Source: Torpedo marmorata (Eukaryota). Taken from it: DNA of 64,000 nt. The translations under genes were made by a program, and so were the position numbers. The stretch covers positions 101,494,001-101,558,000 of the forward strand of contig OZ360229.1 of assembly GCA_977017645.1 (NCBI GenBank), read 5' to 3'. Shown piece after piece: positions 42,001-48,000 of the stretch. The first letter of the stretch is position 1; every line of letters starts with the position of its first letter. The notes beneath the pieces are model-generated. The model made no database searches. It was given only the letters and a program-made list of their open reading frames with translations, and was not told the origin of the DNA.

Positions 42001-45000
42001 TTCTTACCGCAGAATGTGCGAGACCGCCAGGATCCAATGGTTATTCCTACCGACTGGCAACTGAGCGCGTAAGCCTGAATGGCCTGGCAGAGAGTGGTGA
42101 TGTTGTCCCGGTTGGCGCACAGGTCGTACACACAGCTGACCACGAAGCTGGTGGCATCTTTCACGGCGCGACAGTCCCGGAACGGGCCGTCCGTCTTATT
42201 CATGATGCCGCAGTAGTCGGCGGTGTAATAGAGCGATTCTGTCTGCGGGTCGCACACGCTGCAGTTGTCCGCACAGTCGTGCTGACAGGACCAGTCCGCA
42301 TCGTCCACCCTCCAGGCGGTGCCCAGCTTTGCCGGCGAGTCCGAGGGGCTTCCTTCGGGAAGCAGGTTATCGTCGGCCGGGTTGTTGTTGAAGTTCCCGC
42401 ACAGGCCACACGTGTTGTTGAGGTAGGAGCTGGGTAGCGTGATCGAGGCGTAATGTTCCCCGTCGAACGTGAGCAGCAACCCGAAGTCTGTCTCCACCGC
42501 CGTGGCAACTCCGCTCTGATATACTTTAATCGCGCCCATCTCCAGATGCACAGGTAAGGTAGCGAGCCGGCCATCCACCTGCGGCGCAGCGAACAGAAGG
42601 TCATCGCCGCCCCTCGCACTATCCCAGACCCACAGCTCCTCTTACAAGCAGGGCAACTCAAATCCTAATCGCTCAGCAACACCCCCTGCCGCCCACCACC
42701 ACGCCCCAGTTAGGAATTGAGTATATTCTTTCGACTGAGAAGGGGAAAAGTTTCGGGGGAACTTCTTCACACAGAGAGTGGTGGGAGTGTGGAGCTGCCA
42801 GCTGAACTGGTGAATGCGGGCTCATTTTTAACATTCAAGAACATTTTGGACAGGTACATGGATGGGAGGGCTATGGACTGGGTGCAGGTCAGTGGGACTA
42901 GGCAGAATAATAGTTCGGCACAGATTAGAAGGGCCGAAGGGCCTGTTTTCTATGCTGTAATGTTCTATGGGAGACTGCAGATGCTGGAATCCGGAGTAAA
43001 AAGAAACAATCTGCTGGAGGAACATCTACACATTTACTAAACACACCTGGTACTTTTAAACCCAGATTGTGTGTGCATGGCATACATTAATAAGGGTCCT
43101 GGTGTCAATCTACTAGTCACGGACTGCCAATTGCAAAAGCAACCCGGAGCCATCACCCCCCTCTCATCTGTCACAAAGCTAATTTGGGGACCAATTGGCA
43201 AAATTTCGCTAGATCCCATGAGCATTATCTTTTGGACCAGTTTCCCGTGTGGGACTTTTGTCAAAGGCCTTGGTGTACAGTAAGTAGTCTGTGTAACACT
43301 GTAACTTGTCCACCGCACTACCCTCATCAATACATTATATAATAGTTTTCTTAAAAGAAAACAAGTTAGTTAGAAGGACTCTCCCACACAAACCATGCCA
43401 ACTATCCCCGATCAATACCCGCGGCTCCTTGTACAAATTAATCATATCCCTACCACCGAGAGTATTTTGTCACTTTCCTAAAATGCATGGAGATAACTCA
43501 TTGCGTTTGCTGCACCAACCTTCAAAAAAAAGTCAAACACGATCTCCCTTTCGCAAATCAGTGTTCCCCATCACTTCAAATGCTCATTGTTTTCTGAGTT
43601 TTGTAGAATGTTGCTCTGTCTCCTTCCCCCTCCCCCATTAAACTAGCCACCATGTGGATACTCCGCCATAATTATCGACTGATTGCTGATGGAATTTAAA
43701 ACCCTTTCTGGCTGCTGAACTGTTTCTTCTGCTTGGAGTCACGATTTTAATCTCGGGAGTTAATGCCTGTGACAAAGTAAACATGAAAGTCACATTGCAG
43801 AATGAGACAAAAGAGAGTTAAACTCCGTCAGCTTTCAGATGTCTGCTTTTATTTCAGGTTTTCAACGTTTTAATTTTTGGATTATGGTTAACACAGATCA
43901 CAAGTTTGTGAAACAAAATCTCCTCAAATTGAAACTTAATTGTTTATTTCTCCACAGATACTGCCTGATATTAATCCTTCATCATTTTCTGGGCGGCCAC
44001 GTTATTTTCTCGCCCTTTCCAACACGGTTTTGCTGAGATTTGATTTTGATATTAATAAACTCACCAGGACTTGGCTCGATTTCCCTCTCGGAATGACGAT
44101 GCTGTGAGCGTAAACATTCACCTTGATGTTTCTCAGCCACGATACAGCGGTCCCAACCCGGTTCTCGTTCTTGGACTCGATACTGAAATGGGGCAGATTC
44201 TCCAACTCCCAGCAGGGCTTGGAGAGGACGTAGGAGCACGTTCCCTGGAAGTGGTACAGGAACCCATCGAAGGTGTAGTAGTGAGGGTCTCCGAACACCA
44301 CACACGAGGCAGTCTGGGTGGGCATACACCGGTACACACCGTCCACAGAATGGCACTGCTCCAACTGCCCACACGATAGGTTCTGACAATGAATGGCGTT
44401 CCCCAAATCCAGACAGCGGCACTTCCTTTGACATTTATCATCCATCCAAAACACATCCCCGCGACGGAAAAACTGACCTGGAACAGAAGGAAGCCTTCAG
44501 AAGGATGCAGTCATGTCACACTGATCGCTTCAGCCCCTGAGCTCGGCACGTTGATTAAAAAACACAAAAGCTGGAGAACTCAGCAGGTCAAACAGTGTCT
44601 TTTATGTAGCAAAGGTAGAAATACATAACCGACGTTTCGGGCTTGAGCCCTTCATCAAAGTATGAGAAAATGCCGGCAGGCGTCCGAACAAAGGAGTGAG
44701 GGGGGAAGGGGGGTGGCGGTCAGTGAGTACCTGAATGGGCTCTGATAAAATTGCTCCGAGTCACAGGATTCAGCACTGGCAGTTAGAAACACAACACGCG
44801 ATATAACACCCGGACATTTCACGCCAACGTGTGGGACATTCGCTCAGTCAGGGCCGAACAACCTCGCCACAAACAGCGCACCTCGCTCGGTGGAGAAAGG
44901 GGATCTGGAAACACCACCCAAGCGTTGAGAAGGGTATGGACCAAACGCAGTCAAAATAGGACCAGCCCAGAATGTCAACTTAGTCGGCACGGATCAGATG

Positions 45001-48000
45001 GGCCGAAGGACCTGTTCTGCGTTGTACGACTCCAGTTACAAATGTAGGGTTCGATGTGATTGACGATCCCATTACTCATTTTCCTGTTATTTGTCACATT
45101 TTATTACAACATAAAAAAGGTAATTCGGGCTATCGAGTCTATGTTGGCTCTCAGAGTAACGCCGTCAGTCTTAAACAACCCCCCTCCCCCTTTATTTTCT
45201 CTCTTACACACACAGTTGTTTTCCCTGCTTGATGAGGTGCTCCAGGTATTCAGTCTGGCCCTTCACTGGGAACACAGAAGTAAAACACGAAAATCTGTAG
45301 ACACCGTGATTGAAGTAAAAAAGACAAATGCTGGAGAAACTCAGCAGGTCGAACAGTGTCTTTTATGTTGCAAAGGTAGAAATACATAACCGACGTTTCG
45401 GGCTTGAGCCCTTCATCAAAGTATGAGAAAATGCCGGCAGGCGTCCGAACAAAAGAGTGAGGGGGGAAGGGGGTGGCAAAGGCAGGAGATGATAGGTGGA
45501 GAAAGGAGGGAGGGGACAGCAGCAGAGGGGGAGGAGGGATCAGGAGTAGCCATGGGCACCCGCCTGCCTGTTTGTGGGCTTTGTGGAGCAATCCATGCTG
45601 CAAGCCTACACAGGCAAGACCCCTCATCTCTTCCTCCGTTATATCGACGACTACATCGGGGCTGCCTCATGCACCCGCGATGAGCTTGTCAACTTCATCC
45701 ACTTCGCATCCAACTTCCACCACGATCTCAAACTCACCTGGTCCATCTCCGATAACACTCTCCCCTTCCTGGATCTCTCTGTCTCCATCTCAGGAGACAA
45801 GCTTTCCACCGACATTTACTACAAACCCTCCAACTCCCACAACTATCTGGACTACACTTCCTCACACCCTGTCCCCTGCAAGGATTCCATCCCCTTCTTT
45901 CAATTTCTCCACTTCCACCGCATCTGTTCCCAAGATGAGGTGTTCCAGTCCAGATCTTCTGAAATGTCTGCCGCCTTCCACAAACGTGGCTTCCCCTCCA
46001 CCACCATCAACTCAGCCCTCACCCGCATCTCCTCCATTTCCCGCTCATCTGCCCTGGCCCCCTCTGCCCCGAGATGCAACAAACATAGAATCCCCCTCAT
46101 CCTCACCTATCACCCCACCAGCCTCCACATCCAACACATTATCCGCCAGAATTTCCGGCACTTACTACAGGATCCCACCACCAGACACATTTTTCCTTCT
46201 CCTCCCCTCTCGGCCTTCCGTAGGGACCGCTCCCTCCGCGATTCACTCGTGCACTCATCCCTCCCCACCCATCGCACCCCAGGCACCTTCCCCTGTGCCC
46301 GCAGGAGGTGCAACACTTGCGCCCACACCTCCCCCCTCACCACGGTCCAGGGCCCCAAACAAGCCTTCCAAGTGAAACTACACTTCACTTGTACATCCAG
46401 AGAACTTATTTACTGCATCCGGTGCTCCCTTTGTGGCTTTCACTACATCAGAGAGACCGGTCGTAGATTGGGAAACCGCTTTGCTGAGCACCTCCTCTCC
46501 GTCCGCAACAACAGCGACCTCCCAGTAGCCAACCATTTCAATTCCGGGTCATACTCCCACACTCACATGTCTGTCCATGGCCTTATGTACTATCCCACCC
46601 AGACTACCCGCAAATTGGAGGAACAACATCTCATATTCCGTCTCGGCACTCTCCAGCCAGATGGTATTAACATTGACTTTTCTGCTTTCCACTAAACCTG
46701 CTTGTCGTTTCCTTCCCCTCCCCCCTCACCTGTCCTTCCTGTTTTTTTCCACCCACCCAGCCATCCCTCCTCCCCCTCTTTGCTGCTGTTCCCTCCCTCC
46801 TTTCTCCACCTATCATCTCCTGCCTTTGCCACCCCCCTTCCCCCCCTCACTCTTTTGTTCAGACGCCTGCCGGCATTTTCTCATACTTTGATGAAGGGCT
46901 CAAGCCCGAAACGTCGGTTATGTATTTCTACCTTTGCTACATAAAAGACACTGTTTGACCTGCTGAGTTTCTCCAGCATTTGTGTTTTTTACTGGGAACA
47001 CAGGACGAGAGTCCCGTTAGCACCGCGTACGTAATCGCCCAATGTACCGTTCATGCTGCAGCCACTGGATGGGTCGATCGCGTCTCCGTCTACTTTGAAG
47101 ATCCACCGGCCTGGGAAGTTGACATTACTGGTTTGTTCGATATTCAGCATCTCAGAGGTTCTGGAAGTTGGTAGGCTGAAAAAGTGACTGAGATCCCCGC
47201 CATTGAATCCAGCCTGTGTATCGCCCAAGGGGAGACAGAAAAGGTGAATATCGCGCAGACGTGAGCAACCAGCAGCAATTGGTCATAGGCAAACCTTTGA
47301 GAAAACACAACTGAACCTTTGCCTTCAAAATGAATTTGATGCTAAGTAGAGGAGAATTGAGGACTAGATCGAGATCCCCAGTACATAGCTGGTCCCGGAG
47401 TCCTGCGTATAACTTGCTCAAGTAAAAACACATTGCTGAAGAAACTCAGCAGGTCAAACGGTGTACTTTATGTAGCAAAGATAAACATACATAACCAATG
47501 TTTCGGGCTTGAGTCTCTTTGCAACATAAAGTACACTGTTTGACCTGGCGAGTTTCTCCAGCATTGTGTTTTTACTTCAATCACTGTATCTGCAGACTTT
47601 CGTGTTTTACTCTTATAATTTCCTCAAACCCTCCCTCCTGTTGCAAATCACTGCAGCACCAGACTTCCTCACAGTGACGGGAGAACAGAGAACGCGACAC
47701 AAATTCAACCCTCAAAGCTACGCCAGCCAAATATCTGGATATAAAATTAATTCTGATAAAAGTGAGATCATGGCATTATCACAAGGGGATTATAGTAGAT
47801 GTAAAGAAATTACACAATTTAAATGGGCAAAGGAAGGAATTAAATATTTGGGAGTAAGGGTTGATACAAAATTGGCTAATTTATATAAATTAAATTACCT
47901 ACCATTATTTGTGAAAATAAAGAAAGATTTAGAAAATTGGAAAGATTTACCTATAACTTTATTAGGAAGAGTAAATTGTATTAAAATGAATATTTTTCCA

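Follow-up and report, generated by a model that had tools for sequence, protein, structure and literature searches.

Does an intron of the alpha-tectorin gene (TECTA) of Torpedo marmorata contain ribozymes that cut its own pre-mRNA, or does it carry those of a transposable element as inert cargo? Hammerheads of Penelope-like elements (PLEs) are spread by the thousand in fish and amphibian genomes. In the window, i.e., the 64,000-nt stretch of contig OZ360229.1 (positions 101,494,001 to 101,558,000) that we analysed, a 41-nt hammerhead-like motif has three exact matches, as the initial annotation had stated: at 46882-46922 on the plus strand (copy A), and at 45385-45425 (copy B) and 44624-44664 (copy C) on the minus strand, against an expected count of 0.00 (100 shuffles). 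Our preferred reading, to which we assign a probability of roughly 85%, is that the motif is the minimal hammerhead ribozyme (min-HHR) carried by a young subfamily within an abundant Neptune-type PLE of cartilaginous fishes, that it is cargo at the TECTA locus and that the intron is spliced uncut.

The three copies indeed lie within intron 5 of TECTA, a minus-strand gene identified by its NIDO, TILa, VWD and C8 domains (Pfam); the best protein match (81%) is to a protein of Chiloscyllium punctatum, with named alpha-tectorins next. The intron (44478-47047, minus strand; 2570 nt) has its GT donor at 47047 and its AG acceptor at 44478, and is the fifth from the first coding exon, in a count that takes coding exons 1 and 2 as putatively separate. 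It separates coding exon 5 (47048-47213, minus strand; upstream boundary approximate), which encodes the end of the NIDO domain, from coding exon 6 (44065-44477, minus strand; downstream boundary deduced from the translation), which encodes TILa and the start of VWD. Across the spliced junction, the product reads like the GCS-NGQFFRRG of its relatives.

The hammerhead anatomy claimed for the motif was borne out. The core consists of U3 U4 G5 A6 U7 G8 A9, with an extra A next and GAA later; stem II has 4 bp (GGGC/GCCC) and a UCAA loop; stem I, of 6 bp, contains a single bulged U, and its 1.1/2.1 pair is G-U. There is no helix III: the motif has the palindrome ACGU and C17 (GUC site). An AUG inside the core reaches a stop after 17 codons.

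This architecture is that of the metazoan PLE min-HHRs (Cervera and De la Pena 2014, PMC4209133): type I, a three-way junction with the core NUGANGA and GAAA..NUH, no helix III, palindromic positions 15.2-16.2, an extra nucleotide (here A) between 9 and 10.1 followed by G10.1-C11.1, an NUH cleavage site and a location in the pLTR. The initial annotation had proposed such a minimal type-I hammerhead of the dimer type, with which both the published consensus and the pLTR position agree. Several features that it had flagged as unusual are present, but they are standards of the family. The published alignment (PMC4209133, Fig. S3) already shows an extra A, the palindromic ACGU and U3 opposite G8; the extra base is a conserved trait, U3 with G8 is listed, together with GUU, for a Saccoglossus PLE (row Saccoglossus (1)), and an Acropora Neptune row has the same 4-bp GGGC stem II and a 4-nt loop. 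We rejected the extra A as a viroid-like oddity; the comparison with the CChMVd viroid, which has no occurrence in PMC6155905, is unconfirmed and also unneeded. The present motif differs from the published set in its bulged U in stem I and in U3, a listed variant where the consensus is C3, and the 56 rows of Fig. S3 include no cartilaginous fish.

On sequence criteria, the carrier of the motif is the pLTR of a 5′-truncated Neptune-type PLE. Its truncated open reading frame (45550-46695, plus strand) encodes the end of an RT (YIDD), a linker with CX4CxxC (CARRRCNTC) and a GIY-YIG endonuclease with CCHH in which YIG is read as YIR; its product shares 41-47% identity with five RT/endonuclease proteins that are 682-955 aa long and in every case read YIGET, while Pfam matched no family to this remnant. 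After the stop follows the 3′ pLTR (arm A; 46696-46990, plus strand), antisense in the TECTA pre-mRNA, in which copy A starts 186 nt downstream of the stop, sense to the PLE. An inverted, 5′-truncated pLTR (arm B; 45314-45540, minus strand) with copy B, sense in the pre-mRNA, is 95.7% identical to 46763-46993 over 231 columns. A 36-nt tail (45278-45313, minus strand), present in the inverted arm only, fills the space between 45314, where the B/A homology ends, and 45277, where the target-site duplication (TSD) ends; the same tail occurs as loose ends behind 46993 in two sequencing runs (X1 and X3). The 13-bp TSD (ACTGGGAACACAG; 45265-45277 and, as an exact match, 46991-47003, plus strand) has only these two exact matches in the window and none in reverse. 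Arms A and B together belong to a single insertion within this duplication, in which they are inverted relative to each other.

Neptune and Nematis EN+ PLEs (Craig et al. 2021, PMC8557442) likewise have an RT followed by a C-terminal GIY-YIG endonuclease, a CX2-5CxxC linker and two cysteines between GIY and YIG, and their insertions combine 5′ truncation and a TSD with an inverted 5′ copy and a 30-40-bp tail, the standard insertion form of PLEs; all of these are found here, whereas the N-terminal half is absent and YIR replaces YIG. The protein comparison returned no named reference elements, and "Neptune-type" here covers Neptune or Nematis. Truncated elements with PLE min-HHRs are also known to carry another copy, in opposite orientation, at their 5′ end (PMC4209133, Fig. 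S4A). The PAc hammerhead of the Anolis Poseidon element (Frangieh et al. 2024, PMC11167929) resembles ours in its pLTR location and in a tail that marks two alternative ends, but PAc has C3-G8, its ORF starts at stem II and the clade differs.

Copy C, sense in the pre-mRNA and 146 nt before the 3′ splice site, lies in a solo 5′-truncated pLTR fragment (44556-44717, minus strand) without a tail. Because this fragment sits outside the duplication, we infer that it stems from a second, separate insertion; the search for a TSD of its own gave just an 8-mer away from its ends. Copies A, B and C are 96-97% alike over 163-231 nt, and the chance that no difference falls in a given 41 of 164 nt is P 0.08-0.18, so that the three-way identity of the motif is not significant and reflects the youth of the repeat. 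The idea of three independent copies selected for identity was therefore rejected, the more so as two of them belong to one insertion. A retrozyme reading was rejected as well: non-LTR retrozymes (bioRxiv 10.64898/2026.07.22.740005) are also PLE-derived type-I hammerheads, reported in one chondrichthyan, but they form head-to-tail tandem units, whereas B and C are separated by unrelated intron sequence and their direct repeat covers ~160 nt of the 761-nt spacing.

One insertion left the truncated ORF with its pLTR, and the inverted pLTR with its tail at the 5′ end, inside the 13-bp duplication; a second one presumably left the solo pLTR piece. In the TECTA pre-mRNA, arm A would be made first and arm B would zip onto it. 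The duplex of more than 200 bp that the initial annotation had expected is real (231 columns, 95.7%), and predicted folding gives 223 bp of A:B pairing at both 37 and 20 °C, with duplex energies of −449 kcal/mol for A:B, −315 for A:C and −52 for B:C. Transcription reaches arm A before arm B, and in each of three folded prefixes the motif of copy B was paired at all 41 positions. Copy C would be left alone because these positions all pair with arm A, and it would stay a monomer in an inactive fold, since the monomer favours a rod that pairs the core (−11.8 vs. −7.7 for the hammerhead). These nearest-neighbour computations ignore RNA-binding proteins, unwinding of the duplex by ADAR and tertiary contacts. 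On this model, the hammerhead copies are probably inert at the TECTA locus, and the intron would be spliced uncut. The job of the hammerhead, if any, would lie in the element's own RNA, where two pLTR copies would cleave after GUC as a dimer, probably helped by the element's protein, by analogy with other PLEs. The activity of PLE min-HHRs is weak, with none for the monomer and low cleavage for the dimer (PMC4209133), and the Anolis PLE ribozyme cuts only with PLE protein, with no RNA-seq ends at the site (PMC11167929).

The family at large is very abundant and decaying. Its sequence is present in runs of 12 organisms, and the contigs matching it number 106,200, 49,757, 46,862 and 5,179 in four runs from four organisms; these figures come from 4 of 22 runs, and depths are not copy numbers. 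Among the contigs listed for the four runs, none spans the insertion junction. By depth, G12>A amounts to 8.7-29.4%, the neighbouring C>T to 9.1-29.4% and changes at flank CpGs to 1.6-47.8%; each core CpG base has a CpG change in 9-34% of the family depth. Genomic copies look unselected because the catalytic G12 decays at CpG rates, and this family-wide decay argues against selection on the copies in general. Domesticated intronic hammerheads of amniotes (RECK and others, PMC6155905) are likewise type I, in introns of vertebrate genes and on the sense strand, but they are canonical and conserved across species, whereas here we see young copies of a high-copy repeat. The core is unmutated in all three copies despite the family-wide CpG decay; this intactness counts against our preferred reading, yet the copies are young and their identity is not significant.

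The ribozyme could be irrelevant while the insertion still affects TECTA RNA, through the 231-bp, 96% duplex as an ADAR substrate or through a splicing change with a cryptic acceptor at 45266. This is a tentative possibility, compatible with the preferred reading. It is consistent with the stability of the duplex, the adenosine content of the arms (82 and 35), the donor-like GTAAGA at 45207 and the two TSD copies, which rank first and second in pyrimidine count among 65 YAG sites, although a pyrimidine count is crude and not a splice model. Against it, none of nine homologous proteins inspected, though all from other species, has a long insertion at the junction, and DNA contigs cannot show editing. 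The tail is placed before the duplicated CCCAG, which provides the site at 45266.

Somewhat more doubtful is that the motif is no working ribozyme even in active elements of the lineage, and that the U3-G8 core, with GUU in older copies, marks a fold retained for its role in protein binding or RNA structure. U occupies position 3 in 10 of the 11 window copies with a readable core, and three of the four runs have U17 at 58-71% of depth. There is no depth step across the cleavage site (46915 vs. 46916) in four runs, so the main template does not seem to be cut RNA; in Anolis, ribozyme mutants leave in vitro insertion unaffected (PMC11167929). Against this, the non-CpG variants within the 41 nt fall, among the variants listed, only at 2.1, N7 and 17, positions that hammerheads tolerate; a further 66 variant rows lie outside that list, and a U3>C change at 4% or more may be among them. 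Two diverged families in the window fold by themselves into the same hammerhead shape, and U3 with G8 recurs in the hemichordate PLE (PMC4209133).

As to covariation of the stems across the family, 2.1 alternates between U and C opposite G1.1 in the four runs. A14-G18 are invariant in nine window copies, chosen by a pattern containing those bases. In the same copies 80% of 90 cells are paired and 5 of 10 pairs have two-sided change, values reached in 3-12 of 500 shuffles, but the copies are related, stem II was partly preselected and stem I is paired in just 66.7% of cells.

We regard it as improbable that several diverged subfamilies in chondrichthyan PLE lineages retain U3 opposite G8 (mostly with GUU) to keep the core deliberately weak, so that it would cut only with the element's protein bound. 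If so, very many sense copies in introns, the free copy C among them, would normally be silent and cleavable when PLE protein is expressed, a transposon-triggered, genome-wide system of pre-mRNA cutting. Our literature search found no rate measurement for a hammerhead with an uncompensated C3U, and the present family offers a natural substrate for asking whether an uncompensated U3-G8 PLE hammerhead cleaves and whether PLE protein rescues it.

The original proposal, that B and C form a double hammerhead that cuts intron 5 in cis with arm A as an off switch, is not supported. Two intact sense copies do lie 761 nt apart (start to start), a nested double-hammerhead structure can be built by folding, and a low level of in vitro cleavage has been described for dimers of PLE min-HHRs (PMC4209133). 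The antisense copy, however, is not an optional third partner because, as the TSD indicates, it is the other arm of the insertion that carries the first sense copy; made before B, it would bury B before C exists. The forced double hammerhead has a penalty of +90 kcal/mol in the whole intron, of +25 without the antisense arm and, for two isolated copies, of +17 compared with a rod-like mispaired dimer. The position of copy C near the acceptor means that cutting would have to race splicing; in addition, U3-G8 stands in for the C3-G8 pair needed by the Anolis PLE ribozyme, which C3G and G8C abolish (PMC11167929), and the copies show no sign of selection. The model predicts such tight pairing of A and B that cutting of the intron is very unlikely, and we give the proposal very little credence. 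If true, it would mean recent ribozyme domestication in a hearing gene; the evidence is against it. On the preferred reading, the locus adds a ray or shark family whose core has U3-G8 to the known list of PLE hammerheads and otherwise has little significance.

Chance resemblance or an assembly artefact is very unlikely. Rfam 15, which the initial annotation had named as a check, matched no hammerhead family to the interval 43000-48500 at E values up to 10 (six unrelated weak matches), and stem I is paired in just 66.7% of cells in the nine-copy window alignment, but the motif matches the published consensus (PMC4209133), lies in a pLTR that immediately follows a PLE ORF, occurs in TSD-bounded copies that differ from each other and recurs in the runs of 12 organisms.

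In a metagenome scan, the exact family pattern had 0 loci and a looser U3 pattern had nine, none of which resembles the pLTR by blastn and whose stem I has 0-2 contiguous pairs. One of the nine (L006) alone weakly matches the C-terminus of a PLE endonuclease (15 aa, E 6.5e-4), which is a hint only.

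The 41-nt hammerhead-ribozyme-like motif occurs three times in the window without a mismatch, as the initial annotation had stated (0.00 expected from 100 shuffles): copy A on the plus strand (46882-46922), and copies B (45385-45425) and C (44624-44664) on the minus strand, with a B-to-C spacing of 761 nt. All three lie in one intron (47047 to 44478) of a minus-strand gene. The adjoining exons encode NIDO, TILa, VWD and C8 domains in a domain search, and the matches of exon 6 include a protein of Chiloscyllium punctatum (81%) and named alpha-tectorins (53-64%), which together identify the gene, by sequence, as cartilaginous-fish TECTA. 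Counted from the first coding exon (the boundary of coding exons 1 and 2 is a predicted one), this intron is the fifth, in agreement with the placement originally given.

Copy A is borne by the terminal repeat (pLTR; arm A, 46696-46990) that follows the stop codon of a Penelope-like element (PLE) ORF remnant (45550-46695, plus strand), open over 381 codons and matching reverse transcriptase (RT)/endonuclease proteins with up to 46% identity (E = 6e-101). The remnant starts mid-RT and, aligned with five of its 19 protein matches, displays YIDD, a linker of CX4CxxC form and a GIY-YIG domain that has two cysteines lying between GIY and YIG, carrying YIR where all five relatives have YIG. By the definitions in the accessible text of PMC8557442, the element at 45278-46990 is a Neptune or Nematis in sequence. 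An inverted pLTR copy (arm B, 45314-45540, minus strand; 95.7% over 231 columns) carries copy B and runs into a 36-nt tail, and a 13-bp duplication (45265-45277 and 46991-47003, the only two matches in the window) bounds the whole insertion. PLE insertions typically show a 5′ copy in inverted orientation, and one of their ends bears a 30-40-bp tail (PMC8557442, accessible text); because the inverted arm and tail inside the duplication take this standard form, copies A and B are parts of one insertion. The solo pLTR piece carrying copy C (44556-44717) lies outside the duplication, and our window search found neither tail nor target duplication for it; copy C probably arose by a separate event. 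The young subfamily to which A, B and C belong has a fourth member (36332-36454, plus strand; 100% over 84 nt, tail present), which is 5′-truncated within the hammerhead, a few bases short of the cleavage site. Older pLTR pieces of the family (47420-47611, 28184-28472, 37420-37731, 31768-31926) also include inverted pairs, so that several such hairpins would occur in the TECTA pre-mRNA.

In sequence, the motif fits the minimal type-I hammerhead (min-HHR) of PLE pLTRs as presented in the accessible part of PMC4209133: both have no helix III, a palindromic 15.2-16.2 and G10.1-C11.1, and the extra base between 9 and 10.1, conserved there, is present here. This fit, with the location in a pLTR after an RT/endonuclease ORF, bears out the proposal that the motif is the hammerhead of a Penelope element; the Rfam hammerhead models, to which the initial annotation had looked for confirmation, gave no hammerhead match at E up to 10. 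In the 56-row alignment of PMC4209133, which has no cartilaginous fish, one Saccoglossus PLE row combines U3, G8 and a GUU site, and two Schistosoma rows show U3 with A8; therefore, neither the U3 nor the extra A, although present as noted, is new. We found no description of the hammerhead of this cartilaginous-fish PLE family in the openly accessible literature. For one chondrichthyan, hammerhead retrozymes are described in the accessible text of a 2026 preprint, whose supplements may list this family (10.64898/2026.07.22.740005).

Copies B and C had been proposed to form an intramolecular dimer cutting intron 5. In the pre-mRNA, antisense A comes first, B 1222 nt later and C 720 nt after B's motif. 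The minimum-energy fold of the whole intron contains 223 A:B pairs at both 37 and 20 °C, with 41 of 41 bases of the B motif paired, and A buries B in all three transcript prefixes, one ending directly after B's motif. Computed duplex energies are -449 (A:B), -315 (A:C) and -52 kcal/mol (B:C), and forcing the B:C double hammerhead is computed to cost 90.2 kcal/mol in the intron and 25.1 kcal/mol without arm A. These are energy-model results, and the duplex could come apart through editing or the action of proteins. They argue against the dimer; of the accompanying idea that antisense A sequesters the sense copies in a long duplex, they uphold the part concerning B but not C, which is unpartnered in the fold. 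For two isolated copies, the double hammerhead is computed to be 17.3 kcal/mol worse than a rod-like dimer, and a free monomer favours a core-pairing rod (-11.8 vs -7.7, computed). C ends 146 nt upstream of the acceptor, so any cut would need to outpace splicing. With an uncompensated C3U the hammerhead is expected to be slower; no figure for this drop turned up in the literature searched. The activity of PLE min-HHRs is weak, with none in the monomer and little in dimer and trimer (PMC4209133, accessible part).

A loose pattern matched 20 sites in the window, with a readable core in 11 (U3 in 10, C3 in one); the remaining nine are truncated, degenerate or chance. The sole readable C3 core belongs to a degenerate relative at 28671-28716 (plus strand). 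When folded singly, two diverged members, at 49789-49829 (plus) and 23075-23115 (minus), each adopt this same hammerhead shape, and the U3 register is thereby fixed; their stability itself is unremarkable (z = -0.68 and -1.66). The former belongs to a different subfamily and is an intact U3-G8 min-HHR whose site is GUU; it lies in the intron before this one, in antisense to TECTA. The latter is a U3-G8 min-HHR whose stem I is perfect, in sense orientation in the TECTA pre-mRNA, its palindrome damaged because 15.2 is U. Over nine related window copies, 80% of 90 cells pair (66.7% in stem I), with two-sided changes in five of 10 pairs; 3-12 of 500 covariation shuffles were as high, the copies being related and stem II partly preselected, and the pattern weakly backs the hammerhead stems.

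The stretch 45545-47250 was matched in 22 runs from 12 organisms, and in four of them 106,200, 49,757, 46,862 and 5,179 contigs (not copy numbers) were placed on 46780-47230 at 80% likeness. Among the variants listed for these four runs, non-CpG changes in the motif fall only at 2.1 (U replaced by C in 18-81% of depth, pair with G1.1 kept), N7 (41% of depth, one run) and 17 (C replaced by U in 18-71% of depth), and none is U3 to C. CpG decay, as share of depth, reaches 9-29% at 11.1, 9-29% at G12, 1-30% at 15.2 and 11-34% at 16.2, inside the flank CpG range of 2-48%. G12, the general base of the hammerhead (PMC6155905, accessible part), yet decays like flank CpGs; genomic copies as a class are therefore unprotected. 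The three copies show 6-9 differences in their shared 164 nt, giving P = 0.18-0.075 for identical 41-mers, whose identity is therefore no sign of selection. In none of the four runs did depth rise across the cleavage site (46915 to 46916), a weak sign, in agreement with the accessible text of PMC11167929, that the main template is something other than cut RNA. Metagenome loci L002 and L006-L009, from a scan with a looser U3 pattern, have a common U3-G8 motif unlike this one, with a 4-bp stem II and a GUC site. They may come from host DNA and represent a further PLE family; in L006, a PLE endonuclease C-terminus is weakly matched upstream.

The family hammerhead is carried in this intron both by one PLE insertion, which is truncated and has a duplication, a tail and an inverted arm, and by a solo pLTR piece. 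Arm A would pair with B, burying its ribozyme, and C would be left alone, misfolded. We consider that, in active copies elsewhere, the ribozyme acts for the RNA of the element itself, as a dimer or aided by protein, and that it is inert here (probability roughly 0.85). Any local effect would more likely come from the long duplex itself than from ribozyme cutting; that this duplex acts as a putative editing substrate or splicing modifier is a tentative suggestion. According to the accessible text of PMC11167929, the Anolis PLE ribozyme depends on PLE protein and loses activity with C3G or G8C; insertion in vitro does not require it, and no RNA-seq ends map at its site. It is very improbable that a protein-gated U3-G8 core lets the intronic copies be cleaved while the element is active.

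The PLE tail before the duplicated CCCAG yields a pyrimidine-rich acceptor-like site at 45266 (minus), and a donor-like GTAAGA lies at 45207 (minus), delimiting a possible cryptic exon of ~57-58 nt (45266-45208); the other copy of the duplication gives a similar acceptor-like site at 46992, 55 nt past the true donor. AT-rich ORF pieces of 324 and 209 codons at 47530-49033 (plus), without a Pfam match, presumably represent an L1/Tx1-type LINE's 3′ part. A 298-codon ORF at 61488-62381 (minus) we take to resemble the reverse transcriptase 3′ end of a CR1-type LINE, and a 123-codon ORF at 63243-63611 (minus) appears to be the final exon of the upstream neighbour, presumably TBCEL-like.
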